A stretch of 63,452 bases of DNA, counting the filler, from Rozella allomycis CSF55 (taxonomy: Eukaryota): NCBI GenBank assembly GCA_000442015.1. It is 11 parts of 11 records of this genome, joined end to end, with 100 filler letters (N's around TTAATTAATTAA, not from the genome) between each part and the next. Parts side by side here need not be neighbours in the genome. Positions count along the whole stretch, not along the records: positions 19,162 to 34,782 come from KE560476.1; 10 more parts are not named here. One strand, 5' to 3'. Position 1 is the first letter of the stretch. Each line of letters begins with the position of its first letter. Of this stretch, positions 1,195-34,782 are shown piece by piece. The translations under genes and the position numbers were made by a program. A model generated the notes under the pieces. It ran no database searches, had not been told where the DNA came from, and saw nothing but the letters and a program-made list of their open reading frames with translations.

Positions 1195-1365
1195 GGCTAA
1201 ATCTTTAACCACCCGGGGTGCTTGTACACCCCCTGTAGGTTTTACGCGTATTTAAGTGAATGTGATTGGATGATGCTGGGCTGCGCCGTAATGGCATTTG
1301 GCATGTCATTATTAACGCTGGGACTATTTCAACTTAGAAAAAATTTAATGTCTTTCGTCAAATTT
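1195..1365 (+). mobile_element. Left terminal inverted repeat of a MULE of the GGCTAAA family
   Basis: GGCTAAATCTTTAACCACCCGGGGTGCTTGTACACCCCCTGTAGG matches the 32228 terminus and the reverse complement of the 27763 terminus; 1296-1362 resembles 32668-32730. Confidence 0.75.
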
Positions 1366-6350: not shown

Positions 6351-7745
6351 TTAGCCTCGTTGCCAGAGCAGTGATAAAATCGCAAGACCCAAAGAAAAGT
6401 CGTCAACATCAGAACCTGAATCATTTGATGACTTTGGCGCGGTGAAAACAATTTTAAGATTTGGCTTATGTTCTTTGAGTGATTCCTTCAATTTCTTATA
6501 AGATTTATTTTGATCACCTTCGATTTCAAGTAGGTCTAGTTTTGATTCGATTATACTTTGAGAAAATATACGAAGAGACTTGTCTAAATAGATATTTCGA
6601 GTCAGTCTCAAAGTCTTCAAATTAGATTCGGTCAGTGCGTTAAAAAAGCGATTGTTATATTTAATATAGTTTTCTTTTATATTTAATGACTGCAAACTAG
6701 ACACCTTTTCAATCAAAACAATAACATCTTTCACATCTAGTCCCGAGTTTGATATATCAAGATGTTCTAAACGATCAGGAAAACCATATGTAATAAGACT
6801 TCCATGAAGCTTAATATTCTTTGAACATGACAAATTAATACTCTTGAGTTTCGAGAGTCTAACCATTTCCATGAGGAGACCCCAAGACAAAGGATTATCG
6901 CCATAGCGATCAATGCCGCTTAGATTTAAATGATTCAAATTAAACATGGCGACATTAGTAAAAATATCAAACAAGTTACTAAGTGTTATATTGTTATCTG
7001 ATAGATCTAGAGACTCCACCTTGGAATTGTTTAAAAATTTTGTAAACTCTCGAGACTTAAAATTTGGAATATTGTTATTAGACAAATCCAAATGAATTAT
7101 TTCTGATTGAGATTTGGAAATTGATTTAATTAGCTCCACTTCACAAGATACTGTGGATTTTGTGATAGAGATAAGCTTTAATGATTTCTTTTTGCTCACA
7201 AATGGCGGTATTAACAGGCACACTTCTTTGGAGGGGATTCTGGCAATTTTTAATGATATCAAATTGACATTATCTTCGCTTAACACCTTAAGAGCACGTT
7301 TAAAGAGATCTTCGCTGTTAAATTTTTCAAAATCTAATATCACTTCGATTTTAGGATGCTCTTTGCTCGTAGACAAAAAGCGGAGCAACAGATTATAATC
7401 TTCAAAAGAATGTATAAGATTGAACCATAAAAATCCCATATGTTCTGTTTGCGAGAGTATATTTTCGTTAACTTTTAACAGAACGGTACTGCCCTCGACT
7501 TTTAATACTCGGCTTATATCTTTCTCGTTTGGATGCATTTTACGTAAATATTCATCAAAATCTTTAATCAACTTTCGATGTATACGTGAATGGACTCTTC
7601 CAAATCGGTACACATCTTGAAACGGGAGCCGTTCAGCAACCTTCAAAAGAATTTCGTTGGGAACATTTAGTATAGGAACTTCATTTGCTAATATTACACT
7701 CAGAATGACGTTTGTTATAAGCCAAAAATAAATAAACATTTCCAA
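6351..7745 (-). CDS. Predicted secreted F-box/LRR protein
   Basis: Hydrophobic N-terminus, F-box-like ILNVPNEILLKVAERL, repeated LDLSxNxI LRRs; intact 464-aa ORF. Confidence 0.75.
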   Translation of the reverse strand: MEMFIYFWLITNVILSVILANEVPILNVPNEILLKVAERLPFQDVYRFGRVHSRIHRKLIKDFDEYLRKMHPNEKDISRVLKVEGSTVLLKVNENILSQTEHMGFLWFNLIHSFEDYNLLLRFLSTSKEHPKIEVILDFEKFNSEDLFKRALKVLSEDNVNLISLKIARIPSKEVCLLIPPFVSKKKSLKLISITKSTVSCEVELIKSISKSQSEIIHLDLSNNNIPNFKSREFTKFLNNSKVESLDLSDNNITLSNLFDIFTNVAMFNLNHLNLSGIDRYGDNPLSWGLLMEMVRLSKLKSINLSCSKNIKLHGSLITYGFPDRLEHLDISNSGLDVKDVIVLIEKVSSLQSLNIKENYIKYNNRFFNALTESNLKTLRLTRNIYLDKSLRIFSQSIIESKLDLLEIEGDQNKSYKKLKESLKEHKPNLKIVFTAPKSSNDSGSDVDDFSLGLAILSLLWQRG

Positions 7746-8033
7746 CGAAGTATTACCAGATTAGGAAATTCCCAATAATATTTTCTGATCTGACAAGATC
7801 TGCAAGGGCAACATTTACGAATTGTGTTCAATAAATGTCATTTCAAANAAAATCAACTTTCTTTTTGGAATATACAATTTCTATAATTTTATTGAAGTAT
7901 TTATGCCAGTCTTCTCAGAATTATTGACGCATTCCTTTTTGCTCATGTAAAATTGATCATTAATCTGAGCCTGTGCCCTGTGATATACCACATTAGTTTC
8001 GATATTTTGCACATTGGACACTGCATGCGCGAT

Positions 8034-10244
8034 NCTTTACATCCAAATACTTTAAATTAGGCATTCTCTTCATAATAACAATAACTGTATTGATCATCAA
8101 GTCAGAATTTGAGACATCTATGGATTCTAAATGCTCCAACGTCAAGTGATCGTAAATGAATAAACACTTAAAAAGTTTAGGATTCGATCCAGATAAACCT
8201 ATGCGCTCAAGTTTAGATTTTTGGACTAATAGAAAAAGGTCCCCCCAAACATCATACCACTTTATACNAAAATTATGAAACTCAATAAGAATGTGTTTCT
8301 TCTAGTTCTTTGCTTTTTATTTTTAATTTTATTTAGAGAAATGTAAAGACCAGTTTGAGATTTGGCTTCTGTTCCTTTAGCTTTTCTTGAAATGTTTCAT
8401 AAAAACTTGACTTGTCTTCTATGTTTATAGCTATTTCCAAGAAATCAAGCTTTGAAGAAATAATACTGTCATAGAAAATATCCAAACTATTATCCAAATA
8501 ACGCGTTCTCGGTATTTTCAGGGTTCTTAAATTGGAATTGCGAAGTGTTTCATAGAATTGATCATCATAATCAAGGAAATTTCCTTTTACATCCATGTAC
8601 TTCAAATTAGGCATTCTCTTCATTATAATAATAACTGTATTGATCATCAAGTCAGAATCTGAGACATCTATGGCTTTTAAATTCTCAAATGTCAGGTGAT
8701 CGTAAATGAATAATGAATAGAAAACCTTGGGGCTTGATCCAGATAAACTTATGCGCTCAAGTTTAGATCTTAGGACTAATTCAAAAAACTGCCACCATAG
8801 ATCGCTATTTTGTCTACAAAAATTATCGTTGATATTTAAATATTTCAAATTATGTCTTGCTGGCCCTGTCAAGATTAGATCTACTGAAATACCGGGAATA
8901 CAGTTCTTTGAAAGATTCAGCGATTCCACTTTTGAATTCTTTAGATATTTTACAAAACGTGAATTGAGATTGCTTATATAATTGTCTGACAAATCCACAT
9001 GTGTGATTGTGGACATTGATTTCGATATGGATTCAAGAATTTTTAATTCACATGTACACCTAGTTTTTGTTATTGAAATGTGTCTCAAGGTTTTCTTTAG
9101 CTCGACAAATTTAGAAACTAAATCACAAATTTCTTGAGTGGGTATCCCGGTGACTCTTAGGGATACCAAATGAANCATAGATCGCTATTTTGTCTACAAA
9201 AATTATCGTTGATATTTAAATATTTCAAATTATGTCTTGCTGGCCCTGTCAAGATTAGATCTACTGAAATACCGGGAATACAGTTCTTTGAAAGATTCAG
9301 CGATTCCACTTTTGAATTCTTTAGATATTTTACAAAACGTGAATTGAGATTGCTTATATTATTGTCTGACAAATCCACATGTGTGATTGTGGACTGCGAT
9401 TTCGATATGGACTCAAGTATCNAAGATTCAAGTATTTCAAATTATGTCTTGCTGGTGTAAAGATTGGATGATATGAAAAACCGACAACACAATTGTTTGA
9501 TAGATTCAGCGATTCCACTTTTGAATCTTTTACATATTTTGCAAAAATTGACATGAGCATCCCTATATTATTGTCTGACAAATCCACATGTGTGATTGCG
9601 GACTGCGATTTCGATATGGATTCAAGTATCCTTAATTCACATGAACACCTAGATTTCGTTATTGAAATGTGTCTCAAGGTTTTCTTTTGCTCGACAAATT
9701 TAGAAACTAAAACACAAATTTCGTGAGTGATCCCGGTGACTCTTAGGGATGCCAAATTAACATTATCCTGACTCAAGAGTTTTAAAGCATGCCTGAAAAG
9801 ATCTTCGCTATCAAGATCGTCATAATCTAATAATACTTCGACTTTGCAGTACATTGAACCCATCGATTGATATTTAAGAAACAATCGAAAGTCTTCAAAC
9901 GAGTAAATAACATCTAAAGGAAGAAACCCCATGCCCAATGGGTGTATCAATGCTTTCTCGTTTGCCTTTAATATGACACTACTCCCTTCAACTCTAAGTA
10001 CTTTTCGTAAATCTACTTCCTTTGGATAAATTTCTTTTAAGTATCGCTCAAAATTTGTATTCAACGGTGCATGTATAAGAGAGTGGGTTCTCACAAACCT
10101 GTAAGCGTCTTGGGGAGTAAGGTGTTCAGCAATTTTTAAAAGTATTTCATTTGGTAAATTCAATAAGCTCGTTTCGTTTGCTATTTGAATCGCTATAACG
10201 CCTAAAAGCAGATTTTGGAACATAAACAAGAATATTAAAAGCAT
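8034..10244 (-). CDS. Secreted F-box/LRR paralog(s), fragmented at single-N joins
   Basis: ORFs 9354-10244 (signal peptide + LLNLPNEILLKIAEHL + LRR), 9157-9378 and 8333-9178, plus fragment 8034-8268. Confidence 0.7.
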
Positions 10245-10321
10245 TGCTTGAAAATTGTAGTATCTTTCAACCCTTGTCGTCTTTATGGATAGATTAGGTA
10301 ATTAGAAAAGTTAATACATAN

Positions 10322-10806
10322 ACATTATCCTCACTCAAGAGTTTCAAAGCATGCCTGAAAAGGTCTTCGCTGCCAAGATCGTCATAATCTAATAATACTT
10401 CGACGTTGTAGTACATTGAACCCATCGATTGATATTTAAGAAACAATCGAAAGTCTTCAAACGAGTAAATAACATCTAAAGGAAGAAACCCCATGCCCAA
10501 TGGGTGTATCAATGCTTTCTCGTTTGCCTTTAATATGACACTACTCCCTTCAACTCTAAGTACTTTTCGTAAATCTACTTCCTTTGGATAAATTTCTTTT
10601 AAGTATCGCTCAAAATTTGTATTCAACGGTGCATGTATAAGAGAGTGAGATCTCCCAAATCTGTAGATGTCTTGCGGAGAAAGTTGTTCAGCAATCTTTA
10701 AAAGAATTTCATTTGGTAAGTTTAATAAGTGTGTATCTTTTGTTATTTTGACAGTTAGAACGCCTAAAAGCAAGCTGTGGAATAGAAACGAGAATATTAA
10801 GAACAT
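10322..10806 (-). CDS. Secreted F-box/LRR paralog, N-terminal part
   Basis: Signal-peptide-like start + F-box; nearly identical to 9761-10244 downstream of the F-box. Confidence 0.7.
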
Positions 10807-11220
10807 TGCTTAAAATTTTACTACCCCGGTCCTTTTGTGGATAGATTCGGTAATTAGCTAAATAATTTTAGTTAAAGATTTTTTTAAACATATCAACTTG
10901 TAGATAAAGGGCAAATTAGATAGAAAAATTAATATAAAAATAGATCTATATGCATAGGAAAATAGACAGGCAAAATTGATGAATTGAACGTAATAACAGA
11001 GTTGAAAATTATGAACTCTAACTTCTTTAATAACTTTTACTTGATTTTATAGGTTAATTGTTACTAAAATCACATTTGATGTTCCATTTTCATCAAACAA
11101 TTTTCCTGTGGCCTGTACACGTTTTTTGAAATACTATGTTTCATTTTAAAAGCCTCGATCAGCCAATTTTTTTGATTTGATTGATTTTTAACATGGAAAA
11201 TTGCAAAAGTGAATTTCGGA

Positions 11221-17541: not shown

Positions 17542-19061
17542 GAGATCAAAAAGTAATTTCTGAAGTACACAAACTGTATCCAAAGAACACCTTCTGATCT
17601 CAATAACATTGGGTACAAAGGTTTGAGAGAATCTACAAGGACAATAACTTAACCACTGAACCGACGAAGCATTTGCTAAGACTCTTCGCTCACAATAACG
17701 AGTCCGTTGCACAGTGGCTGACAAGGCACAATGAATTGAATCCTCTTTGCAGCTGGGATATCTTGAAAAACGATCTACTAAAAGAATTCCTCTCTCCCTA
17801 TTGGAAATCCGAATAATACTCCAAGATATTCAACAGTTCCGGAATTCATCGGAAGATTTTAAGACCTCTTGACGGAGAACAATATCGCCTTTACTGTTCC
17901 GGATTCGCAACANTGTCATTACTAAACTTCTACACTAAACGGTGACTTTGAACTTGGTGCCTGAAATACAATTTATTCAAAATATATTTTTCCCGGCCTG
18001 TTTATGAGTATGACCCCCCCCAAGTCAACGCAGCGTGGGGTAATAAAAATATTGATTCCCTCGTTCTATTTTTTTTAATAAGTTAACGAATTTATTTATA
18101 ATAATCTTTCAAATCAGNTAATAAAGAGTCTGTCGCACAATGGCTAACCAGACATAATGAATTGAATCCTCTCTGCAACTGGGATGTCTTAAAAAACGAT
18201 CTGTTGAAGGAGTTTCTCTCTCCCTATTGGACATCCGAAAAATACTCCAAGATATTCAAAATACAGTACTAGCATGGAGCAACAGTTCCGGAATTCATCG
18301 GAAGATTTCACGACCTCTTGACGGAGAACAATATCGCCTTTACTGTTCCGGATCCGCAGCTNGTCAGAAATATACTCCAAGATATTCAAAATTCAATACT
18401 ACCATGGAGAAACAGTACCTGCATTCATAGGAACATTTCAAGACCTTTTGACGGAGAATAATATTGCCTTTACTGTTCCAGACCCGCAACACAATCTCTT
18501 GAAAGAACTCCTTTTCCCAAAGCTTCCAGATTCTGTAAAGGGACTACTCAACAAAAAACCAGTGAGCAAATTTCCAACAATCTTGAGTCTGATGCAGGCC
18601 GTCAAGGAATTCCCCGGAATTCCTTATNCAACAATCTTGAGTCTGATGCAAGCCGTCAAGAAATTCCCCGGAATTCCTAATGATATGTCGGTTGCATATG
18701 CTAGCAGATCTCCGTCAAAGAGAAGAGTGNCAACAAACCGGTGAGCGAATTTCCTACCATCTTGAGTTTAATGCAGGCCGTCAAGGAATTCACTGGAATT
18801 CCTAATGATATGTCGGTTGCATACGCCAGCAGATCTCCTACAAGTAGAAGAGTTGAGACTCAGAAGGAAAATTCCGGTAGCCCTGCTAAAAAGAAAGTCA
18901 CAACCACTTATTATTGTGAATTCCATAAGAACAATCAAAGGATTACGCACAAAACTGAAGACTTTAGAGCTCGCAAGAGCGGAACAGGAGATAACTCAGG
19001 AAAATCGGAGGAGAAGAAAAAGGCCAGAAAGGATTTTGTCAAGAAGCTATGTGACAAATGT
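17542..19061 (+). mobile_element. Degenerate LTR-retrotransposon gag fragments (several overlapping copies)
   Basis: Repeated 100-200 bp pieces; YYCEFHKNNQRITHKTED and KKLCDKC knuckle-like motifs. Confidence 0.55.
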
Positions 19062-19225
19062 NNNNNNNNNNNNNNNNNNNNNNNNNNNNNNNNNNNNNNN
19101 NNNNNTTAATTAATTAANNNNNNNNNNNNNNNNNNNNNNNNNNNNNNNNNNNNNNNNNNNNCAAAAAAAATAAAAAAAATTGACATGTTAAACTGAATAA
19201 TAAATGTTATAATTACTATAATTAT

Positions 19226-20233
19226 TTATTTAGCAGCCTTCGTTTTATATTTTTTCTTCAATGATCTCCACTTCTATTGTCATTAAGTAATAGTACTTAC
19301 TTCAACGTTGCATCTATTATTTGACGACTTTGAAAAATAGTCAATGTAGTATTCCACTGCTTCATACGCGTCCTTAGAACCTTTTCCAAACCCTGATCCC
19401 ATTTTAATGTATCTTAGACAATTACATTCGTCATTTTTACTTTTCTATATTCTCATAATCATTTTGATATGCAAAATTAGGACCTACTAAAATGGCAGCT
19501 CCTTTTTTTTCGAACACCGTAACAACACAATGCGGCACGAAGGGCTTAAAAGTCATGACGGTTCCAGGTAACTGGACATATACCTGGGGTTTGTCTTTAT
19601 ATTTGAAATAACTTTACAATTTAAAAGGTTTTTTTACCTTAATAATTCTGCTTCGTCGCATGTATATGAGGAAAATTTCGTATTAAATTTAGTTATGCGC
19701 TTCCAAAATAACCAAATTTTGGCAACCTTGACTTTGGTTGGAAGAAACCATGCAAAATTATGCCCCATATCGATGTGTCGATAGGTGACATAATCTCCAA
19801 AATGCGCAAAAGCTGTAAATGTTGGAACACAAACATTTGTACAATCTTTTATCATCCTACATTTTTAAACTCTACTTAATGTTACTTATCATTGAAATGC
19901 TGTAATTCCTTTTCAATAAGTAGAACTGTCTTTTCTTGACCACTTTTTAAAATGTCGTCAATTCTACGCTGTAGCTCGGATTTAGTTATTCCTTGGTTAT
20001 CATAAATATAACTTGTTATTACCAAAGTTTTGATACTGGTTTCCCGCCCACAAAACAACATCTCTTTTATCTGCTTCCCACGTTTTAATATTAAATACTC
20101 CTCTGTCGCATATACTCACATTCGAGTGATAATGCGCAGCCAGAGTTTTTAATATTTGTGGATTGATTTTGGGTTTAAAACCTATCTTCTTCGTCAACAG
20201 AGCCTCTCTGTTCGCTTTTCTCATACAAGCCAC
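19226..20233 (-). CDS. JmjC-domain 2OG/Fe(II) dioxygenase (5 introns; start uncertain)
   Basis: Removing GT-AG introns 19992-20022, 19857-19885, 19612-19637, 19413-19440 and 19274-19300 gives one frame: ...YVTYRHIDMGHNFAWF...KIWLFW...VQLPGTVMTFKPFVPHCVVTV...AILVGPNF...KAAK*; HxD...H triad present. Confidence 0.8.
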
Positions 20234-20746
20234 CTATGTCCCTCAAGCCTAATACATATCCCTTTTTACGTTTTTTCACCTGAAACATATATAATTGTTT
20301 GTAGCGTATGCTGATGTGTCGCTACCACTCATAAATGACCAACAGTCACCACTGGAACCTCGTTGCCTTAAAACATTGATTAGGTAACATTAATGTCTGC
20401 ATGGCGAGCTCAAATTTAAATTTTAATGTAATGCAGGACATATGTCAATCTCATTTATATATAAATGATGTATCTGTCATGAATGGTGTTTCCTTTTAAG
20501 TACGTTTTGTACCAAATATGCCTGCCTAAAACCCATTTGTGAATGAGAGTTACTTATGTTATAACTATTAACTCTTTTAGGGGCTAAAGATATCATAGAT
20601 AAAGTTTTTTTAAAAAACGATTGTGTCGTCTTCAATGGTGTCCCTTTAGTGCACATAGCATTACATTGCTACAATTTATCAAATATCAGAATACAAAATT
20701 ACTTGTTATGATCTAATATTTGTTCTCTCTACGTCTCGCGTATCCC

Positions 20747-23700
20747 ATGTTGCTAACGACGACGACCATCAATCAAATGTGCGCTGACAACAATTCCTAT
20801 GTATGCGATCCGTCTTACGTATCTCACATGAACGAATATGTTTCTGCAGTTGGTGAACTTGAGTTAACATCGGTGGCGATCAAGGAGAGAATACTGAATG
20901 AATCAAAGTCATTAGGTTATGCTCTGTCTGTTGTTCGGACAGACAAGAATAAAATAATTTTGGCCTGCAGTAGGTCAAAATATCCGTCTTGCTTAGCACG
21001 GGTTAGAATATCAACGTATAAAACAGAAATTGGAAAGATTGGTTTGCATGTGTTTGAGCATAATCATCCTCCTAGCGACAAGGTTACAACACTTCCTGAT
21101 AATGTTGATGATGCTATTCGAAGCTTCACACAAGCGCAAATGAATTCGTTTCAAATACATACTGCCATACAGGTAATGTTTCCAGACAATCATATCCCTA
21201 TACATACAATAGTGACAAAAGTGAAAACAATGCGTAAAGAGCTTTTTGGTAGCACGGGAATTGAATATGATAAACTAATAAAGCAAATTGAAACTGAAGA
21301 GAATACATACACACGAATACAGGTAGAAAGAGATTCATTAGGGACAGTGCTAAATTTTATGTGGAGTGACACGCGCGCGCTAAATAACTTTGAATCAACT
21401 AATTGCGATTTGCTACTTGTCGATACTACATACAAGTGCGTAAAATTTGACCAATCACTTGCATTATTTGTATCTATGGACTGTCACGGTGTATACTATA
21501 TTGTTTCAGCTGCTCTGATTTCTTTAGAAGACGCGCGTACATTCACATGGTTAATTAATAATCTCAAAAGTCTTTGTCCAAAGTTGGGTACTAGTCACAC
21601 CATAATCTTCACTGACAATGACGCTGCTATGACGTTAGCATTTGAGGGCATGGCATTTCTTTCGCATTACCTTGATCTATTTTATTTTTTGCAAGCCCTA
21701 GACCGTAATCTCCGATGTCGCATGCATCAGTACGAAAACTTCCGTCGCACTATACGTCGTCATATTCTTTGCATATCTTCNCTTCCTACTTGTCGATACT
21801 ACATACAAGTGATCTATGGACTGTCACGGTGTATACTATATTGTGTCAGCTGCGCTGAGTTCTTTAGAAGACGCGCGTACATTCACATGGTTAATTAATA
21901 ACCCTAAAAGTGTTTGTCCAAAGTTGGGCACTAGTCACACCATAATCGTCACTGACCATGACGCTGCTATGACATTAGCATTTGAGGGAATGGCATTGCT
22001 TTCACATTACCTTGATCTACTTCATTTTGTGCAAGCCCTAGGCCGTAATCTTCGATGTCGCATGTATCAATACGAAAACTTCCGTCGCACTATACGTCGT
22101 CATATTCTTTGCATATCTTCAACTGAATTGGAGTCGGAAATACCAAATCTTGTTAATTAGTTTCACATTACTAAGGCCGGACGTGAATACATACAGAATT
22201 ATGTCGTTCCTATTCTCCCAAAGGTTTGCCGAAAAGATAGAAGTCATGTATTTGATTTAGGAGTGTCGGGTACTAACTCATGTGAGGCATTTAATCGTGT
22301 CATTAAGAGTTACGGGGCGAACTTTGCGTCGCATGCCTTATCATTGATGCAAATAACTGATTTCATATTTGACACTTACACTGAGAAGTATAAATCTATA
22401 ATTGAACGTAAGGCCCAATTAGTTAATGTTTCAAATATGTCCCAATCTGAAAAGGATTTAAAACAGCGCCTCGGAGCCTATGCAGAGTGTAAATTACTGA
22501 AACAAATGCGAAAAGCTATGTTCTTAGACGTTGTGTCTCACAGCGACAATTGCACATATAAAATATCCAGTAATGACATTCAAGTGGCCACTGTAACATT
22601 AAATGATAGCGATGATGACATTAACCGTGTCTATATTACAAGCGCAAAGAAATTATTTGCTCACACATTGTGGCCGTAAAACAAAAATTGGGTCAATCTG
22701 TCTCCTTTAACGACTGTATTCCTCGTTGGCATATGCCCGTCATTAACGAACCAATGTGTCTTCTGGGTCCTCCAATGTAGTGTCAATGACAGTGCGTCCT
22801 CAAACGTCCCTGCGCGAATGCCGCCTAAAATAACACGCTGTCCATAAGTTAATGTATAATGAAGCTTTTAACAGCGTTGAAAAACTACAGATCGCAATTG
22901 ACGGTTGCCAACACACATACCAATGTCTGTTTCTAAATGTTTCCTCCTTTGATCCTCCAGCTAGGCAAAAAAACGTTCTTAACGAAAAAAAAGTGCAAAT
23001 TAAAATTCAAAAGTATTCGGTTTATTAATATCTTAAATGTACTTCTTTTCCAATAGCCCATCGGTCCCCTTCCGTTTGAGTGAATATGCGCATTCGTCTA
23101 AATCGAGTAAATAAATGTCTCCNTTAGTTTCACATGACTAAGGCCGGATGTGAATACTTACAGAATTATGTCGTTCCTATTCTTCCAAAGGTTTGCCGAA
23201 AAGGGAGTGTCGGGTACTAACTCATGTGAGGCATTTAATCGTGTTATTAAGAGTGACGGAGCGAACTTTGCGTCTGATGCCTTGTCATTGATGCAAATAA
23301 CTGATTTCATATTTGAAACTTACACTGAGAAGTATAAATGTATAATTGAACGTAAGGCGCAATAGTTAATGTATCAAATATGTCCCAATCTGAAACGGAT
23401 TTAAAACAGCGCACCGGAGCCTAGGCAGAGTGTAAATTACTGAAACAAATGCGAAAAGCTATGTTCTTAGACGTTGTGTCTAACAGCGACAATTGCACGT
23501 ATAACATATCCAGTAATGACATTCAAGTGGCCACTGTAACATTAAATGATAGCGATGATGACATTAACCGTGTCTATATTACAAGCGCAAAGAAATTATT
23601 TGCTCACACATTGTGGCCGTAAAACAAAAATTGGGTCAATCTGTCTCCTTTAACGACTGTATTCCTCGTTGGCATATGCCCGTCATTAACGAAACACATG

Positions 23701-23960
23701 TGTCTTCAGGGTCCTCCAATGTAGTGTCAATGACAGTGCGTCCGCAAACGTCCCTGCGCGAGTGCCGCCTAAAATTACAAGCTGTCCATAAGTTAATGTA
23801 TAATGAAGCTTTTAATAGCGTTGAAAAACTACAGATCGCTATTGACGGTTGCCAACACACATATCAAAGTTTGTTTCCTCAAGAGTCCACAAATGTTTCC
23901 TCCTTTGATCCTCCAGCTAGGCAAAAAAGACGTTCTAAACGTAAAAAACGTGCAAAATAA
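20747..23960 (+). pseudogene. MULE (Mutator) DDE transposase with SWIM finger; two overlapping versions, each with stops/frameshifts
   Basis: N-terminal ACSR...C...EHNH, LLVDTTYK, IFTDNDAAM, GTNSCEAFNRVIK, PCLYY...ICSHIVAV (SWIM), basic C-terminal tail. Confidence 0.9.
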
Positions 23961-23989
23961 AATTCAAAAGTTTTCAGTTTATTAATATC

Positions 23990-25536
23990 TTAAATATACT
24001 TCTTTTCCATAAGCCCATCGGTCCCCTTTCGTTTGAGTGAATATGCGCATTCGTCTAAATCGAGTAAATAAATGTCTCCATTTGACAAATTTAAGCCCAC
24101 ACCCGTACCGTGCGGAGATTCATCGTACCAAATGTTCGTGACGTCCTTATTGATTTTTTGTTTCAAGTATTGGTAAATTGCTTCTGTAATATTGTAACCA
24201 TCACAATTTAGTTTAACCTTCCATTTTGCTAATACTTTTTTAGGTTCGCACGACAACGCTGCACAATGCATTGGTACATGGCGATCCATCTCACAAGCAT
24301 GTATAAGGGGCGCTTCATGAAAAGTTATTAAAGTCTTCTTAAAATTGTCCAATGTAAATGACAAATTCGTATCTAAAGGGGGTTTTCCTAGCTCAAATTT
24401 TTTAGATTTCCACATGCGAAAATTTTGATTGTAATTATAGACTCCTCGATCAAAAAGAAAATGAAAGTCGTTGCCTTGCAAAAGCGGCACAAGCAATGGG
24501 AATCGGCCATTAACTGTCCAATGCAGCCTTAAAAACCATCCGCTGTCACACCATGTTCATCATACATTGGATATGCCAATTCGTATAAATTATTCACGAC
24601 CCATCTTAGAACAGCGCAACAACGCTCAATAGACGGAAACACAAACTTTTGAAAAACTAAATGTAAACTAATTTTTGTCCCTTTCGACGCGTCCAACACT
24701 ATCACATTATTGACAATTTCTTCCGCATCGTTTATACCCATGCCCCTTAAGGCTTTTGCAAGATACCATTTAAGACTATCCACGACTGCTTCTTTTCTTA
24801 CTAAGCTTTGAAACTCATTAATGACTGCTTGATATTGACAGTCGATGTCCATAAAGAATTTCACGGGCACATTTTTGCGAACTATTTCGTAGCAAGTCTT
24901 GTTGCAGCTGCCTAAAACACTATAGTAATCAAAAAATGTCTTGATGTCAGTGTAAGCATAGTGACGGGCACCCGAGCTATTAACTTCGCGCGAAACAAAA
25001 ATCTCATTTTCCACTGTTTGTTCGTNACGGAAACACAACCTTTTGAAAAACTAAATGTAAACTAAATTTTGTCCCAGTCGACGCGTCCAACACTATCACA
25101 TCATTGACAATTTCTTCCGCATCGTTTATACCCATGCCCCTTAAGGCTTTTGCAAGATACCATTTAAGACCCTTCACTACTGCTTCTTATCTTACTAAAC
25201 TTGGAAACTCATTAATGACTGCTTGATATTGACAGTCGATGTCCATAAAGAATTTCACGAGCACATCTTTGCGAATAATTTCGTAACAAGTCTTGTTGCA
25301 GCTGCCTAAAACACTAAAAAGGTCACAAAATGTCTTGATGTCAGTGTAAGCATAGTGACGTGCGCCCGGCTATTAACTTCGCGCGAAACAAAAATCTCAT
25401 TTTCCACTGTTTGTTCGTTACTTGATGTTAGACACTTATGCAATTTGCGATGCCATTCAATATCCGCTCTTAACTTTTTTAACTTAAATGCTTCCAGTGG
25501 CGATATAGTAACCAAAGTTCTTTTTGAATTCGACAT
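23990..25536 (-). CDS. PrimPol-like archaeo-eukaryotic primase-polymerase (one frameshift at a T-run near 24530; duplicated segment at N25026)
   Basis: GARHY...FFDYY...CYEIVRKNVPVKFFMDID (motif I), DASKGTKISLHLVF (motif II SxH), FDRGVYNYNQNFRMWKSKK (motif III). Confidence 0.85.
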
Positions 25537-25863
25537 TCTAAAGTTTCACTTGCAACTCCCCGTTTATATACCCGTATGTTTCATTTTTAATTGGTTCAAA
25601 ACCACCATTACCCCTAACTCCTTCTATTCTTAGGACATTCTTCTTTATAATTGGTTCAAAACGTAATTTTCATAAACTATATATACACTATACCGCTGAA
25701 TTTGCATATGACTAAACGAGGTAAACACTTTATCGTATCGTTCAATGAGCAAGCGATGCAGAACATACCTGCCCACCGGATACTACAANTACATTCTTGT
25801 TTATAATTGGTTCAAACCGTCATTTTCATAAACTATATATACACCATACCGCTGAATTTGCAT

Positions 25864-27575
25864 ATGACTAAACGAGTTAAACACTTTATCATATTGTTCA
25901 ATGAGCAAGCGATGCAGAACAATTCGGCCCACCGCATACTACAAGCTTTTGATTCAGCTACAAATGTTCCGCCTACTACAGTCACAGGTATTTTGGACTT
26001 AGAAGCCGCTGCAGATAATTCAGATGCCGCAACAATCACTACNCTACTGTCACAGGTATCTTGGACTTAGAAGCCGCTGCAGATACTTCAGATGCCGCAA
26101 CGATCACTACTTTCGTTCTAACAAAATCGTCGGAGGGTCAACAATTATCCTCCTTTTTGTCGTTTAACAAAACGAAAAGACTAGGTCGTCATTTTCTCTC
26201 ACGTATCATTACACACAACGTACACATTCAAAGTGTTAAAGCACTTAAACGTAATTGGAAACATGACTTAATTGCTTTGATCCAAGGTTGCAACAACAAT
26301 TACGAGGTACTTAGGGGGACTATGCCAGACATTAGTTCCTCAAAAATGATTTCATTAATAGATTTTTATGCAATTGCATGTNACTTTGATCCAAGGTTGC
26401 AACAACAATTACGAGGTGCTTAGGGGGACTATGCCAGACATTGACACGGTAGTTAGTTCCTCAAAAATGATTTCATTAATAGATTTTTATGCAATTGCAT
26501 GTGATCATAAATTTCACGACGAATTATGCCTTTTTGCCTTTATTCAAAACCACGAGTCTTCATTTGACATTCAATTAGAACAACTAGCTTTTCAATTAAA
26601 ACTTTCGTAAACCGAAATATGCACTCTAAAAGCATGTCCGTACGTGTTGCCGAAGCAATTTCTTGGGGCGAGTCTCGTCAAGAGGTGTCNCTGACATTCA
26701 ATTAAAACAACTGGCTTTTCAATTAAAAACCTTCGTAAACCGAAATATGCACTCTAAAAGTATGTCTGTTCGTGTTGCCGAAGCAATTTCTTGGGGCGAG
26801 TCTCGCCAAGTGGTGTCTAGACGCCTGCAATCTCGTATGGACATTTTGCATCACCTCAAACCACAAGAGCGCCCTATCGAAACAGATAATATATATTTGA
26901 TTTTGCGAACGCATAATTTAGATCCGCATATCTTTCGTGCGGCTTTACTCAANAGGTGTCTAGACGCTTGCAATCTCGTATGGAAATTTTGCATCACCTC
27001 AAACCACAAGAGGGCCCTATCGAAACAGATAATATACATTCGATATTGCGAACGCATAATTTAGATCCGCATATCTTTCGTGCGGCTTTACTCAAATTTA
27101 TATTTGCCGATGTATCAAACGAAAACGTCGGCTATGCCTTATTGGTTCTTCCAATACCAACAAAAGCAAAATAGCACAAGGCTTATGCGACATATTGAAG
27201 TCTGCGACTTTAATAAGTGAAAACACCGTTTACAAGTTAAAGCCACTTCTCAATGCAGAGCTTATAATAATTCCTGAATTGCAAAAATTATTTAATTCCA
27301 GAGTATTAAAGGAACAAGACCTGCTTGCATTATTGTCTGAGGCAAACACTTTATCAATTCCTGTTTCCAATGACGGAAAACAAAAAAAACTCAATCTAAA
27401 TACACCCATATTTATTATGAATCAAAATGACAATTTTGAAAAATTCACAGACATTTCATCCTTAAAAAACAGGTTAGAAATAATACATTTCAATGGCCCG
27501 GCATTTTCAAGCAACCTTCAACTTCCAATCACCGGCCATGCACTTGCTTACTTTCTTTTGACACCAAATGAATAG
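25864..27575 (+). CDS. Parvovirus NS1/Rep-like superfamily 3 helicase (duplicated pieces at N joins; -1 shift near 27117)
   Basis: NIYLILRTHNLDP...KRKRRLCLIGSSNTNKSKIAQGL (Walker A), ELIIIPE (Walker B), TPIFIMNQN (motif C), SLKNRLEIIHF (Arg finger). Confidence 0.75.
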
Positions 27576-27714
27576 ATATACTTAATAATAAAGGCTATTA
27601 AATATTTTATTTTCTTTAAACCTTTCTATTTTTAAATTTATATATCAGCCACAGTGGATTAAACTCGAGCCAGTGAGGCGCATTACTTGCCATTCCATTC
27701 CACCAATCATATTT

Positions 27715-27763
27715 CTTCTTACCTATGGGGTGTGGTCACACCCGGGGTGTAATTTCTTTAGCC
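27715..27763 (-). repeat. Right terminal inverted repeat with GC hairpin
   Basis: Reverse complement is GGCTAAAGAAATTACACCCCGGGTGTGACCACACCCCATAGG. Confidence 0.8.
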
Positions 27764-27899
27764 GAAAATCCTAAACCATTCAATCAACCAAACCAAATCA
27801 AAGAACAACTAAAATAAGAAATATAACAACAAATTAATGAACAATTCAAACAAAACAAGAACGAATCAATCAAATGATGATGAAAGAGAATAATTCTTT

Positions 27900-28330
27900 A
27901 CACCAGAATATAAAAGGGAAGCAATCAAGAAATAAGCGATCAGTTTCCAACTCATTTCTCTGATTCATCTTCATTTTATCAATTAATCCATCTATCCATC
28001 TATCATACCACATACGATTTTACTTTTGCCTTTAGCCTCCCAGTATTTTCGAATTAGTGTGAAATCGTGGAAGTCAATTTCTTCCTCCCATTGGTTGTAT
28101 GATGGATCATGATTCTTCCAGTTTACCAAATATTCTGATGTATTGTCAGCATTTAGTCTGTGTTCTAATATCTTTTCGACTTGAACAGCTTTGCTGTTTG
28201 GATCCTCGTTAACTGGGGTGCCATGGAATAATATCAATGTATGAGGAGGGCGAGTATTTATGGTGCCATCTGGACCTAAAAGTTCACAGGCGCCACCTTT
28301 GTTTCGTCTGATTATTTTGAAAGGCCCAGT
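27900..28330 (-). mobile_element. Ty3/gypsy chromovirus 3' end (integrase GPF motif, chromodomain, probable LTR)
   Basis: GPFKIIRRNKGG; VEKILEHR...EYLVNWK...YNQWE chromodomain; 27915-28011 resembles 29170-29266. Confidence 0.8.
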
Positions 28331-28552
28331 TTTTAAAGTATGGACTATTCATTAAATTTGAAAATAGCAATGTAAAGCCGTTGTGGCTGAGTTTATTTAA
28401 AAGTTTTTCTTCAGCCTAGGTACNCTAGTAAGAGAATTTGTCTGGTTTTCCGATGGGTTTTTAATTGATACTGGTATTGTTTTCTTTCGTTTTTGCAAGC
28501 ATTCTGTTGAAGTAATCTTTAGTGGCAAAGAAGCTAACGAATCTAAAATCTA

Positions 28553-29007
28553 GGGCAGATCAATTCCCCGCACCATGTTGGTCATGTCCCTACACCACCT
28601 AAATAAAACTTTGAAAAAATGTCAATTGCCCGCACCATTTGTCATTTTCCCGCACCACCTTAAAAAAACATTTCCCCGCACCACATGAAGGACTTGTCAA
28701 AGTTATGCGTTAATTCGACATAGTACAACTCGCCCATTACTTATCGAAGCAACATAGCTTGCATGTAACAGTCGGGACAGAAAAAACTTAAAGAACTTAA
28801 GAAAAAGGGCGACTTTCGCATGAGAAAGAAGACAGAAAACAGGTCACTGAATTTGTACGCAGGAATATATTATAAATATGAATAAATGTATTATTATGTA
28901 TATGCGCAACACCTATATATATCTATTTCTGAATTGAGATTTTGGTGTGAGTTTTTGGTGGTGCGGGGAAATGACATTTTTTGGTGGTGCGGGGAATGAT
29001 GATCTCC
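28553..29007. mobile_element. Non-autonomous MULE-type MITE
   Basis: GG...CC ends; imperfect TIRs built of CCCCGCACCA units; 9-bp TSD TAAAATCTA (28544-28552) / TAAAATCCA (29008-29016). Confidence 0.75.
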
Positions 29008-29266
29008 TAAAATCCAGGTAAACCTTAATGAAGTGTTAGCACACATCAATGAAGTCAGAAGAATAATCTCAAAGAAAGAAGAAGAAGAAAAAAGTGAATC
29101 AATTATAAATGAAAACAATGTATTAGAATCTTCCAGACGAATGGTAGCTATGACAACGTCAGCATATATAAAGGAAGCAATCAAAAAAAAACAAGCGGTT
29201 TCCAACTCACTTTTCTGAGTCATCTTTACTTTATCAATTTATCCATTCATTCATCTATCTTGTTAC

Positions 29267-32227
29267 AAACGATTATATCCTGTTCCTATCGCATTGACAA
29301 ACTAACAGGACCACCAATTATCACACATGGGCGCTGGAGTTCCGCTAAGTCCTTGAAGAATTGGACCTTGATCGCTTTTGCACATCGCCTTCGTATCCAT
29401 TATCTAAATCCAATGCTACCTGACCAAGCCTATAATACTATCCCGGCCACTCCTCCCGGGTGTTGCGATATCTTTCATTTAGAAAATCATGCTCCTCACA
29501 CATGTCAACATCTTCCACTTTGGTATGTGCCAGGAAAATCTCAGTACCTGTTTTGCAAGCATTGTCGCACTGCCGTCACAGTTTCCAGAACTGTTATCAC
29601 CCACCTGCACCATGGGAAACAAGGCGTGACCGGGGTTATCAACAACACCGAAGACGGAATGCATTTCCTAAACCACCTCGTAGACAACAAGATGACCCTC
29701 CTACAAGAAGCGACGAGAATCTCCAACAAGAATCACGACTTGTTCACAATGATGAAGATCCATTTAACCCAAACATATTCTCTAATTGTCTTCATTTAAC
29801 AACAAACAATTTACAAAAACCATGCCATCTCATCAGGTAATACTTGGCTTGTTGACACAGGGCGCACTCATCACATGACTAACAATATCAATCCCTTTCA
29901 GTACTATCACGAAAATGCTAATCCACCTGTTAGATTTGCAAAGATTGGTCTCATTGAAGTTCCAGATTCAGCGTTTGTCACACTCCAGGTGCTATTGCGC
30001 GATGGCACAGTCAAGCCTTTTTCTTATCTAATGTTCTCTATGTTCCAGACGTGAATCATATTTTATTTTCCTGCGAGATCCGAATGTTTAAAAGAATCGT
30101 GTGTTGTTTAGTGATGGGTTTTGTACTGCTGAAGACAAGGTCACTGGAGAAATTTTGTTGGAAGGTATATATGATGGTCGATTTTATCTTATTTTACTCT
30201 AAGAGCCGCGATCTTATCATCTGTAAGTTTTAATCAAATAAATACAATGAATTTGTGGCATGAGAGACTTGGTCATGTGAACGAGGAAACAATCAAACAG
30301 ATGTGGAAAAACCANAGAGGTTCATTTTTCCGTGTTCTTAATTCGTCAGTGACCATGACATATGCTCCTGGTTGAAGATTAAAAATTCTGTTATATTCAA
30401 GGCATTCACCCCCTTCTAGTGTCGCTTTTGTATTAGACAACTTATTAATTTCAGGATACACAATCGATGTCGTTTAGTTAAGATCGATGTCGTTTAGTTA
30501 AGACGAGCCTCCAACTCTATTGGTGATAAAGATATTAACTCTTTTTAATTATTCTAATTCCTAAAAAAGTTAGGAGCCCTTGCGAACATCAACGAAAATG
30601 GTGTAGATTTTGTTGTGTCAGAAACTTTTAGATTACAAATGTATTGTGATTGAGCAACATAGTTATCCCATTCACGAATTTGATCTTGAAGCCAATATGT
30701 CTTTTAGCTATGCCATTAGCACGAGGATTGGATGGAGTTATTAACCTGAATTAACAAGTTGATTCACAAATTATGTACCATTATCAGATCGTCTCCAATT
30801 GTCTTCATTTAACAGCAAACAATTTACAATTACAACAAGCAACATTGCCAGGAGAATACTATCACATGACTAACAATATCAATCCCTTTCAGGACCATCA
30901 CGAAAATGATAATCCACCTGTTAGATTTGCAAAGACTGGTCTCATTGAAGTTCCAGATTCATCGTTTGTCACATTCCAGGTGCTATTTCGCGATGGCACA
31001 GTCAAACCTTTTCTCTTATCTAATCTTCTCTATGTTCCAGACGTGAATCATAATCTATTTTCCTGCGAGATCCGAATGTTCAAAAGAATCGTGTATTGTT
31101 TAGTGATGGGTTTTGTAGAAATTTTGTTGGAAGGCATGAATGATAGTCGATTTTATCTTATTTTATTCTCAGAGCCGCAATCTTATCATCTGTAAGTTTT
31201 AATAAAATAAATACAATGAATTTGTGGCATGAAAGACTTGGTCATATGAACGAGGAAACAATCAAACAGATGTGGAAAAACCAAACCTTTGATGGAATGA
31301 AGCCTTTTAATTAATCAATTGAAAATAGTTCTGGATTCGCTTATATTGAATAATTAGCACAGAAACGTGATGCCGCCGAAGCCATCAAGACATTCATAAG
31401 GAGAATCCACAATAAGCAAAGTTGTAGAATCAAAACAATTAGATCTAATAGAGGTGGAGAATTTGTTAACGGACCTTTAAAAGACTTTTGTGGCCAAATT
31501 ATGAAATTCTAAAACAGGGTATGAATACATATAAGTAATTAGGGGTATTCACCAGGTATGTCATGTATATTCCTTTGACAAAAATGCAAGCAGAAACGAA
31601 ACTGCAGGAGAAGCTTTTGTTAATCAATGGATTAGTATTTTTAGTTTTGCTCATAAAATTTTGTCAGATCAAGGAAGTCAATTCATGGGTAAGNCTTAAT
31701 CATAAGCTTGATTTCTGTGAATCTTGTAGACAGAGCAAATTAACTAGGTCATTCTTTAAAAAAAGCTGTCGCCAAGAGGTCGACGTGGGACAATTTTGGC
31801 ACACAGGTTTTATGGGTCCCATTAATACAACAAATCTAGGACGCAAGATAAATATAATAACTTTCATTGAAAATAGTTCTGGATTCGCTTATATTGAATA
31901 ATTAGCACAGAAACGTGATGCCGCCGAAGCCATCAAGACATTCATAAGGAGAATCCACAATAAGCAAAGTTGTAGAATCAAAACTATTAGATCTAATAGA
32001 GGTGAAGAATTTGTTAACGGACCTTTAAAAGACTTTTGTGGCCAAATTATGAAATNGAGCATATGAAATTATTGGACTATGACTCAGTGAAATGCAAGCT
32101 AGTAGGTTATAACTTAAATTCATAAGCATGGCGCTTTAATGTAATTGGAACTAATAAAATAATTATCTCAACACAGACAGTGTTTCACAAAATTAAGAAA
32201 GAATATATCACACTACAAGAAAATCCT
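29267..32227 (+). mobile_element. Degenerate Ty1/copia retrotransposon (duplicated pieces, interleaved with gypsy fragments)
   Basis: CKHC...H...C knuckle, WLVDTG.THHMT protease, LWHERLGH, CESCRQSKLTR, IRSNRGGEF integrase, KCKLVGY. Confidence 0.85.
30316..30770 (-). mobile_element. Ty3/gypsy integrase C-terminal fragment
   Basis: WDNYVAQSQYICN...STPFSLMFARAP and PGAYVMVTDELRTRKNEP. Confidence 0.65.
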
Positions 32228-34782
32228 GGCTAAATCTATACACACCCGGGGTGTCTGAACACCCCCGGTTCAGAGTNTGAAAATCGCATATAAATGGAAG
32301 CCTGTTTAGCAATAATGCATTCTGGGATTCAACTCCATCAATGTGGGGCGAAGCAATTATGGTGGCAAACTACATACAGAACAGAACAGGAAGACAACAA
32401 CATTCATACAAGANTATCAACAACTTCTACATCAACCGCAGATCATCATCAAACATTAGGAAGAGTGAAGCGTATTAATAAATTTCTTTATCAAATTCTT
32501 TATTTATATTTATCAATGAAAGTCAAAAAAAATTGGGAAATTAATTTACCGATATTTGCCCTTTGCAGATAACTCCAGTATTGTTGAATCCCCTATGTTC
32601 ACTCCTCATTATCATATGTTTGGCCAAAAAGCAAATTTACCTACAGACATTGTATATTTAGATCNGATTTGACATGGATTTATCATGGCTGGCTTGGGCT
32701 TAACTTAGAAAACATTTTGGTCTTCGTCAAGAATAATAATAATAATTGTAATGTTAATCTGCATAATTAAATGTTACTATAATAATTTATTTAGCAGCCT
32801 TCGTTTTATATTTTTTCTTTAATGATCGCCACTTCTATTTTCATTAAGTAATAGTACTTACTTCAAAGAAATTGCATCTATTATTTGACGACTTTGAAAA
32901 ATAGTCAATGTAGTATTCCACTGCTTCATACGCGTCCTTAGAACCTTTTCCAAAGCCTTATCCCAATTTAATGTATCTTAGACAATTACATTCGTCATTT
33001 TCTCTTTTCTATAAGGGCTGAAATGTCATGAAGGTTCCAGGTAATTGGACATATACCTGAGGTTTTTCTTTATATTTGAAATAACTTTACAATTTAAAAG
33101 GGTTTTTGACCTTAATAATTCTGCTTCGTCGGATGTATAGGAGGAAAATTTCGTATTAAATTTAGTTATGCGCTTCCAAATAACCAAATTGTGGCAGCCT
33201 TGACTTTGGTTGGAAGAAACCATCCGAAATTATGCCCCATATCGATGTGTCGATAGGTGACATAATCTCCAAAATGCGCAAAAGTTTTCATTGAAATGCT
33301 GTAATTCCTTTTCAATAAGTAAAACTGTCTTTTCTTGACCACTTTTTAAAATGTTGTCGATTCTACGCTGTAGCTCGGATTTAGTTTTTCCTTGGTTATC
33401 ATAAATAGAACTTGTTATTACCAAAGATTTGATACTGGTTTCCCGCCCACAAAACAACATCTCTTTTATCTGCTTCCCACGTTTTAATATTAAATACTCC
33501 TCTGTCGCATATACTCACATTCGAGTGATAATGCGCAGCCAGAGTTTTTAATATTTGTGGATTGATTTTGGGTTTAAAACCTATCTTCTTCGTCAACAGA
33601 GCCTCTCTGCTCGCTTTTCTCATACAAGCAACCTATGTCCCTCAAGCCTAATACATATCCCTTTTTACGTTTTTTCACCTGAAACATATATAATTGATTG
33701 TAACTAATGCTGATGTCATAAATGACCAACAGTCACCACTGGAACCTCGTTGCCTTAAAACATTGATTAGGTAACATTAATGTCTGCATGGCGAGCTCAA
33801 ATTTAAATTTTAATGTAATGTGGGGCATATTTGAATCTCATGTATATATATATGTATCTGTCATGATTGGTGTTTCCTTTTAAGTACGTTTTGTACCAAA
33901 TATGCGTGCCTAAAACCCATTTGTACATGAAAGTTACTTATGCTATAACTATTAACTCTTTGAGGTGCTAAAGATATCATAGATACAGTTTTTTTAAAAA
34001 ACGATTGTGTCCTCTTCAATGGTGTCTCTTTAGTGCACATAGCATTACATTGCTAAGATTGAGCAAATATCGGAATACAAAATTACTTGTTACGATCTAA
34101 TATTTACCCTCTCTACGTCTCGCGTATCCCATGTTGCTAACGACGACGACCATCAATCAAATGTGCGCTGACAACAATTCCTATGTATGCGATCCGTCTT
34201 ACGTATCTCACATGAACGAATATGTTTCTGCCGTTGGTGAACTTGAGTTAACATCGGTGGCGATCAAGGAAAGAATACTGAATGAATCAAAATCATTAGG
34301 TTATGCTCTGTCCGTTGTTCGGACAGACAAGAATATAATAATTTTGGGCTGCAGTAGATCAAAATATCCGTCTTGCTTAGCACGGGTTAGAATATCAACG
34401 TATAAAGCAGAGATTGGAAAGATTGCTTTACATGTTTTTGATCATAATCATCCTCCTAGCGACAAGGTTACAACATTTCCTGATAATGTTGATGATGCTA
34501 TTCGAAGCTTTATAAAAGCGCAAATGAAATTCGTTTCAAATACATACTGCCATACAGGTAATGTTTCCAGTCAATCATATCCCTATAAATACAATAGTGA
34601 CAAAATGGAAACCTTCCGTAAAGAGCTACGGGAATCGAATATGATACACTAATAAAGCAACTTGAAACTGACGAGAATACATACACACGAATACAGGTAG
34701 AAAGAGACTCATTAGGGACAGTGCTAAATTTTATGTGGAGTGACACGCGCGCGCTAAATAACTTTGAATCAACTAATTGCGA
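32228..34782 (+). mobile_element. Second, partial copy of the JmjC-MULE element, including the left TIR
   Basis: GAAAATCCT|GGCTAAATCTATACACACCCGGGGTGTCTGAACACCCCC; 32770-34782 collinear with 19200-21412; JmjC copy has deletions; transposase ATG at 34131; retro fragments lie between N32277 and N32666. Confidence 0.8.

Follow-up and report, generated by a model that had tools for sequence, protein, structure and literature searches.

A gene split by small introns beside a MULE transposase gene in Rozella allomycis, and its candidate relation to JmjC/Cupin_8-type oxygenases

Mutator-like elements (MULEs) with a second gene besides the transposase gene are known, maize MuDR with mudrB and Yarrowia Mutyl with mutB being two of them, and to our knowledge neither mudrB nor mutB has recognised oxygenase motifs. 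The Kyakuja-Dileera-Zisupton (KDZ) transposons of fungi carry TET/JBP dioxygenase genes, and the Cupin_8/JmjC-only oxygenases are a further branch of such enzymes, named FIH/JMJD5/JMJD6-like. VANC of the Arabidopsis VANDAL MULEs is described as a sequence-specific DNA-binding protein that acts against silencing (PMC5735166, PMC10398659). Epe1 of fission yeast is described as a protein of the JmjC type that counteracts heterochromatin, in part independently of catalysis (PMC7192584, PMC6317313). In the part of Muszewska et al. that is available (PMC5751038), MuLE is listed among seven DNA-transposon superfamilies in Rozella, with extra genes unmentioned there. Here, we analyse a gene of the early-diverging fungal parasite Rozella allomycis CSF55, called gene X in the following, which lies beside a MULE transposase gene in a stretch of 63,452 nucleotides (nt), filler included, taken from assembly GCA_000442015.1; this whole stretch is called the window.

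We propose that gene X is an intact gene for a divergent oxygenase of the JmjC/Cupin_8 type and that it is an accessory gene of a MULE family, a reading as a whole to which we give a probability of about 0.5.

A gene split by small introns, and its family

Gene X lies on the minus strand at 19226..20224, with its ATG at 20224 and its TAA ending at 19226. Read from stop to stop, the open reading frames (ORFs) of the gene are five fragments in different frames. When five introns are taken out by coordinates, a single open frame of 285 residues with no internal stop is obtained from a coding sequence of 858 nt, and each of the five introns begins with GTAA and finishes with AG. Exon 1 (20023..20224) begins with a start codon that is common to the annotated paralog model P0007, and intron 1 (19992..20022, 31 nt) has the same junction in that model. 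Exon 2 (19886..19991), which encodes a helical linker, is left out by the gene model P0001, and it is followed by intron 2 (19857..19885, 29 nt), the donor of which coincides with the start of a 73-nt deletion in a second copy of the gene described below. Exon 3 (19638..19856) encodes T127-x-x-H130-x-D132 (H codon 19777-19775, D codon 19771-19769) and the lysine of an AKIW stretch, while exon 4 (19441..19611) encodes QLPG..PH203CVV (H codon 19532-19530) and GPNF. The introns that follow these two exons, intron 3 (19612..19637, 26 nt) and intron 4 (19413..19440, 28 nt), have junctions identical to those of the annotated paralog P0002. Exon 5 (19301..19412) encodes C-terminal helices, with YIKMGSG.. 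conserved in P0002 and P0004; intron 5 (19274..19300, 27 nt, GTAAGT..AG) is in frame, yet contains a stop; and exon 6 (19226..19273), reached by splicing by coordinates, includes the stop codon.

The spliced product contains TYRHIDMGHNFAW with H130 and D132, VYVQLPGTVMTFKPFVPHCVV with H203, and VGPNFAY. The metal-triad pattern H-x-D ... H is matched by H130, D132 and H203, with a spacing of 73 between the two histidines, where a distance of about 70-90 residues is expected in the JmjC/Cupin_8 triad. A sequence-only reading of this DNA had already placed here an apparently intact gene hidden by five GT-AG introns of 26-31 nt, with the H-x-D...H triad and a JmjC-typical strand, and these claims are borne out: the introns are of 31, 29, 26, 28 and 27 nt, the ORF fragments become one frame of 285 residues that is open from its ATG to its stop, the triad and the QLPG..PH.V / GPNF stretch are present in the spliced product, a paralog aligns from end to end, and introns of this length form a peak over the whole window. 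The span then given, 19226-20233, holds at its end at 19226 and not at 20233, which is the edge of a stop-to-stop ORF.

The peak is seen when ORF-bridging candidates of the form GTAA..AG are counted over the whole window. It lies at 26-29 nt, with 35 candidates where a control dinucleotide pair gives 12, and the 4-nt bins beside it hold 5-12 candidates; a plain GT..AG bridging scan of the window was not discriminating, and the GTAA..AG form was used in its place. An internal standard for the tiny introns of this genome is given by a host MCM gene at 4999-6272 (+) (Pfam MCM and MCM_lid), which is joined over a 26-nt GTAA..TAG intron at 5605-5630. For R. allomycis as a whole, one source gives a mean of 2.5 introns per kilobase (PMC8476143). 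Four joints of DNA contigs, with skips of 63, 91, 76 and 98 nt, are copy variants, and none of the four is equal to an intron. The ciliate code (TAA/TAG = Gln) was considered as well and rejected: it gives no single frame, and long host ORFs are obtained with the standard code. Gene X is a real, intact gene, split by introns that are ordinary for its genome. Because searches of protein collections gave no identical protein, it appears to be unannotated. It is noted that ORF-based scans of the Rozella genome miss real genes that are hidden by introns of 26-31 nt.

The annotated paralogs agree with gene X on the start and on three junctions. P0002, an annotated protein of 279 residues, can be aligned with the spliced product from one end to the other; of 251 aligned columns, 145 are identical, and so are junctions 3 and 4, with junction 2 nearly so. 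P0007, which is the annotated model of the second copy and is 96-100% identical to it, has the ATG and intron 1 as in gene X, and the P0001 model, besides leaving out exon 2, uses an acceptor 44 nt further on. The N-terminus of gene X is uncertain, in that P0001 and P0002 reach further upstream in a region where the frame is shifted in gene X. A phmmer search with P0002 over 1.84 billion representatives gave five proteins with the query included, among them P0004 with 37% identity to P0002; with a profile and a limit of E ≤ 10, five proteins were likewise found among 2549 candidates; and two metagenome scans gave no family member. Every member found bears the name R. allomycis. The models P0003, P0005 and P0007 are fragments or frameshifted. 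Four family proteins span the HxD pair in frame, and all four retain it; the distal His is likewise retained in each of the four that span it, P0004 among them, with the key residues conserved at a divergence of 37-58% identity within the family. As judged by these searches, the predicted gene X protein is a member of a small family that is found only in R. allomycis. A separate observation concerns P0005, the residues 175-212 of which match a distant site at 1215-1328 (-) at 55% identity; in this chimeric model, remnants of gene X have probably been fused to another repeat.

Linkage to the transposase gene and predicted fold of the product

The ORF that neighbours gene X contains a MULE domain (Pfam E 4.8e-12), and the two genes stand head to head about 490 nt apart. 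The divergent intergenic spacer is at 20225..20716 and is 93-95% conserved in the second copy. The N-terminal part of the transposase ORF, with the MULE domain, is at 20717..21780 (+) and is contiguous with gene X with no N, while the C-terminal part, with a SWIM-type zinc finger, is at 22161..22780 (+) and is reached solely over single-N scaffold joins (21781). The second copy of gene X, which is 90-94% identical, broken, and the same as the annotated fragment P0007, is at 32728..33623 (-), and the second copy of the spacer and of the start of the MULE ORF is at 33624..34782 (+), where it is cut by the contig end. In both of the two copies gene X, spacer and MULE start are contiguous without N (19162-21780 and 32666-34782), and since the identity is 90-94% over both of these N-free stretches, the pair was copied as a unit.

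The defects of copy 2 are a 73-nt deletion, a 91-nt deletion, by which the distal His is lost, and a 1-nt deletion. A comparison of selection between copies, which the sequence-only reading had proposed, was run on these two as the ratio of the proportions of non-synonymous and synonymous differences (pN/pS), and its outcome speaks for the gene: there are 10 synonymous and 15 non-synonymous differences in 237 codons, giving pN/pS of 0.37 with a binomial p of 0.015 in what is a small sample. The 73-nt deletion (19813-19885 of copy 1, near 33284-33285 in copy 2) runs from the donor GT of intron 2 to an AG that is the acceptor of P0001. It shifts the frame, as in P0007, and it could have come from mis-spliced RNA copied back into DNA, or from chance.

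As for the fold, two kinds of comparison point to the JmjC/Cupin_8 type, the first being the ESM Atlas, whose feature and structure searches count as one source of evidence. In features, 23 of the 30 clusters nearest to P0002 come from sets with JmjC, Cupin_8 or JmjC_2, and the top family-bearing match has a score of 0.95 with 178 shared features. In calibration, roughly 1 in 100 shuffled proteins attains a score of 0.95, and 178 shared features is a number such as true family members have; about one third of shuffled proteins also get ten family-consistent matches, and a template-modelling (TM) score below 0.5 usually means another fold. With the Atlas's own model of P0002 (predicted TM score 0.62), nine of the ten rows listed are JmjC_2/Cupin_8 and one is 2OG-FeII_Oxy_5/PhyH.

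The second comparison is profile-profile alignment by hhalign, with the five-sequence gene X family as the query. The Cupin_8 templates were built from bacterial proteins, Cupin_8 being present in 40 of 401 bacterial genomes, a tally that includes one unpublished genome from which no sequence was used; JmjC (PF02373) was present in 3 of the 401, too few for a profile. Against an alignment of 17 divergent bacterial Cupin_8 proteins the score is 28.0 (P 0.0035), with Thr127, His130, Asp132, the AKIW Lys and PG..His203 in register with the Cupin_8 consensus over the core 123-208. None of 214 column shuffles reached 28.0 (mean 13.6, standard deviation 2.4, maximum 22.6), and the reversed query gave 12.75 against the same template. 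Against the first and closer set of 28 Cupin_8 proteins the score is 20.6, and 5 of 200 column shuffles were as high.

These comparisons suggest that the gene X protein is most likely a very divergent double-stranded beta-helix of the JmjC/Cupin_8 type, and we consider it quite probable that it has such a fold with an intact metal site, any particular substrate being much less probable. H130, D132 and H203 would make up a predicted complete Fe(II) site, with a Thr three residues ahead of the first His. The fold and the use of cofactors are what we infer here: because of the Fe(II) triad, the Thr before the first His and the Lys at the position of the Cupin_8 Lys, the protein is predicted to be a 2-oxoglutarate oxygenase, and it probably has 2-oxoglutarate-dependent oxygenase activity.

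Points against the proposal and rival explanations

The gene model, the family, the conservation of the motifs and the linkage to the transposase in two copies are shown. Against the larger proposal, of a JmjC/Cupin_8-type oxygenase that is an accessory gene of a MULE family, weigh a number of observations, which concern the fold on the one hand and the linkage on the other. In the searches with curated profiles, Pfam at E ≤ 10 gave nothing relevant for P0001, for P0002 or for five exon translations searched singly, so that no curated JmjC, Cupin_8 or JmjC_2 profile was matched above threshold by any of them, and NCBIfam and PHROGs gave nothing relevant either. Searches of PDB sequences with exon 3, profile A3, P0002 and P0004 listed no JmjC protein, the best E-value of profile A3 being 0.27. 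With a local Cupin_8 hidden Markov model (HMM), the spliced product scores 0.7 bits, which 43 of 1000 shuffles equal or exceed, and P0002 scores -2.3 bits, as do or better 293 of 1000; by HMMER, the Cupin_8 profile hardly tells this family from chance, if at all. Four templates were tried in hhalign, the probability that it assigns for the 17-protein Cupin_8 alignment is only 9.3%, and the score against the RoxA family profile is 13.7, which is at the null level; with profile A3 against Escherichia coli RoxA alone, nothing was obtained. A true remote pair taken as positive control, the RoxA family against Cupin_8, scores 59-80, and the 28.0 of the gene X family is therefore weak in absolute terms. 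The TM scores of the ten rows listed in the ESM Atlas are 0.40-0.47, all under 0.5, and the fragment P0004 gave a best match of 0.77 there, with none above. AlphaFold2 gave a predicted local distance difference test (pLDDT) of 37 with an alignment of eight rows and of 35 with the single sequence, both models being unusable; Foldseek with the pLDDT-37 model gave no match at E ≤ 0.001, the model being too poor for this to carry meaning. Finally, the position of the AKIW lysine is Ile in P0001. The only row below 0.001 in the PDB searches with P0004, a tandem galectin-1 fusion chain at E 2.7e-4, was rejected as chance, single chains giving 0.095 or worse.

The sequence-only reading had made its JmjC assignment depend on a JmjC/cupin profile match of the product, and in those words the assignment fails, with no such match at Pfam E ≤ 10 for P0001 and P0002. 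The assignment keeps the ESM Atlas neighbours and the hhalign alignment to Cupin_8 with the triad in register, and it lacks the curated profile match.

As regards the linkage, the window is a chain of contigs with ten N44-TTAATTAATTAA-N44 linkers as joints, and not a single molecule. Gene X is at the very start of the piece 19162-34782 (KE560476.1), with 64 nt between its stop codon and the contig boundary, and the linker there (19062..19161) conceals the downstream end of any element. Within the pieces, single Ns are bordered by overlapping ends that are 86-98% identical (e.g. 22157-23125 versus 23124-24082, 92%), a further instance of near-identical ends around single Ns being at 42454-44182. 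Because of these overlapping ends, many apparent tandem duplications in the window, those of the MULE ORF included, are most likely assembly joins and not biology. With an assembly chained from overlapping pieces, the distances between the copies of gene X are nearly meaningless. There are only two linked copies in the window, the second of them broken, and no terminal inverted repeats of at least 18 nt that bracket the gene X-MULE pair were found in the window. Nor were element ends of the pair found, the contig boundary being 64 nt past the stop on one side and copy 2 being cut on the other. The claim that gene X is cargo of a transposon is partly supported, by the head-to-head arrangement with the MULE and the joint copying; a position within an element is putative.

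Several other explanations are to be weighed with these facts in mind. MULE insertions are often near gene starts, and gene X could belong to a host gene family specific to the lineage, whether JmjC-like or otherwise, that happens to stand beside a MULE, the pair having been segmentally duplicated or the copies being allelic or paralogous pieces of the assembly. The lack of terminal inverted repeats or target duplications around the pair, the presence of just two linked copies in the window, both within one scaffolded stretch, and the make-up of that scaffold from overlapping pieces with single-N joints are all in line with this, as are the 37-58% identity with conserved key residues, which looks like selection of its own, and the five introns in 858 nt of coding sequence beside a species mean of about 2.5 per kilobase (PMC8476143). 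We consider a host gene beside a MULE a live rival, yet the less likely reading, in view of the similar identity of gene X, spacer and transposase start between the copies (90-94%), which were copied as a unit, of the decay of copy 2 as a transposon relic would decay, and of the truncated or frameshifted paralog models P0003, P0005 and P0007, which are typical of repeat families. It is also conceivable that the protein is an orphan, neither cupin nor oxygenase, in which H-x-D...H and PG..H occur by chance and for which the language-model matches are false positives. The searches of curated profiles and of PDB sequences were all negative, P0002 is at chance level with the Cupin_8 HMM, AlphaFold2 could not fold the protein (pLDDT 37 and 35), about one third of shuffled proteins get ten family-consistent ESM Atlas matches, and TM below 0.5 is usually another fold. 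On the other side are the ESM Atlas score of 0.95, reached by about 1 in 100 shuffled proteins, with its 178 shared features, the hhalign score of 28.0 that none of 214 shuffles reached, with Thr, His, Asp, Lys and His in the Cupin_8 register, and the conservation of the triad in every in-frame paralog, with which an orphan is rather unlikely.

That the open frame of gene X is a matter of luck, and that the gene is silent, without present function and only recently dead within a decaying repeat family, is improbable. Copy 2 and several annotated paralogs are broken, and there is a frame shift in the N-terminal region when compared with P0002 and P0001, as such a history would have it; yet a frame of 285 codons that depends on five exact splice sites would hardly last long without selection, pN/pS is 0.37, and the catalytic residues are conserved among paralogs of 37-58% identity. 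Very improbable is, finally, a 2-oxoglutarate oxygenase of another branch, TET/JBP-like or of the PhyH/2OG-FeII_Oxy type. It could call on the one of ten ESM Atlas structure rows that is 2OG-FeII_Oxy_5/PhyH and on the fungal KDZ transposons with their TET/JBP genes, whereas the other nine rows and every family-carrying feature match, 23 in all, are JmjC, Cupin_8 or JmjC_2, and the residue aligned with the Cupin_8 Lys is Lys and not Arg. No likeness to TET_JBP was found by Pfam, and no TET_JBP cluster is among the ESM Atlas feature or structure rows.

Returning to the proposal of an oxygenase gene that accompanies a MULE, the most likely role of gene X would be that of an accessory gene of the MULE family. 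Gene X and the transposase may be co-expressed from a common divergent promoter region in the spacer, and the gene X product could then benefit the element by hydroxylating or demethylating a target, whether a histone, another protein or a nucleic acid; the substrate and the anti-silencing effect are conjecture. The stronger statement, that the MULE carries an active JmjC-type oxygenase which strips the element of repressive methyl marks or acts there as a hydroxylase of a chromatin or silencing protein, we put forward as a speculation with poor odds. If it were so, gene X would be, with odds equally poor, an enzymatic counterpart of plant VANC and of the TET/JBP of KDZ transposons, one that has diverged from host JmjC beyond the reach of standard profiles.

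Surroundings of the locus and comparison with known systems

Besides gene X and the MULE, the window contains other features. Between the two gene X-MULE copies there are two minus-strand ORFs without family at 23993-25050 (-). An ORF at 27060-27572 (+) weakly resembles superfamily-3 helicases (PPV_E1_C, E 1.5e-5, below the cut-off), and its region may be another mobile or virus-like element. An inverted repeat pair at 28614-28684 and 28952-28996 (39 nt, 85% complementary, about 270 nt apart, CCCGCACCAC-rich) may be the sign of a miniature inverted-repeat element. Copy 2 of gene X is adjoined, over an N, by fragments of a copia-type retroelement at 30755-31192 (+) and 32056-32660 (Pol_BBD, E 4.1e-8, with internal repeats). 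On the neighbouring contig, degenerate direct repeats of 76-240 nt lie within ORFs at 17694-18806 (+), with no Pfam match, and a Cys/His-rich stretch near 18900-19060, also with no Pfam match, may be retroelement gag-like. Further away, a series of related ORFs at 6354-10857 (-) have a common N-terminal LNLPNEILLKIAE motif, one of them with an F-box-like match below the threshold (E 2.9e-4); the repetition there coincides in part with single-N joins.

Few transposons carry a chromatin or nucleic-acid modifier of their own, and those that do are informative on how mobile DNA deals with host silencing. If the proposal is true, a JmjC-like oxygenase with a MULE would add to VANC and KDZ-TET/JBP a third type of case, this one from the lineage next to the microsporidia. 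In open-access full texts no JmjC gene in a Mutator-like element was found reported, supplements such as the transposon tables of PMC5751038 lying outside those texts. Even without the transposon link, the gene X family would be a candidate for a very divergent branch of the JmjC/cupin oxygenases that is restricted to one species. It also illustrates that a protein family may fall under all curated thresholds while language-model and profile-profile methods still indicate a fold.

Among the systems named at the beginning, the Cupin_8/JmjC-only oxygenases (PF13621, PF02373) are the likest in the protein itself. Like them, the gene X product is a small single-domain protein with T-x-x-H-x-D, a Lys about 18 residues on and a PG....H.V strand 73 residues past the first His, and most of the ESM Atlas neighbours of P0002 are in these families; it differs in that its family is below every curated threshold, has its homologs in one species and is coupled to a transposase gene. 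With MuDR and Mutyl, the locus would have in common a MULE with a second gene besides the transposase, the difference being that gene X diverges from the transposase over a common spacer. With KDZ it would have in common that a DNA transposon of a fungus goes together with a gene for an Fe(II)/2-oxoglutarate dioxygenase, whereas both the transposase superfamily (MULE for gene X) and the oxygenase branch (JmjC/Cupin_8-like for gene X) are different ones.

The likeness to VANC is one of role alone, and no sequence relation is expected. Each is an extra gene beside the transposase in a Mutator-like element, with a proposed action counter to host silencing that is conjecture for gene X, while VANC, as described in the sources cited above, binds DNA and is not an oxygenase. 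Epe1, as described in its sources, differs from gene X in being a large host gene and is likened to it by description only; as an anti-silencing protein of the JmjC type, it indicates that the logic proposed here for gene X is biologically possible.

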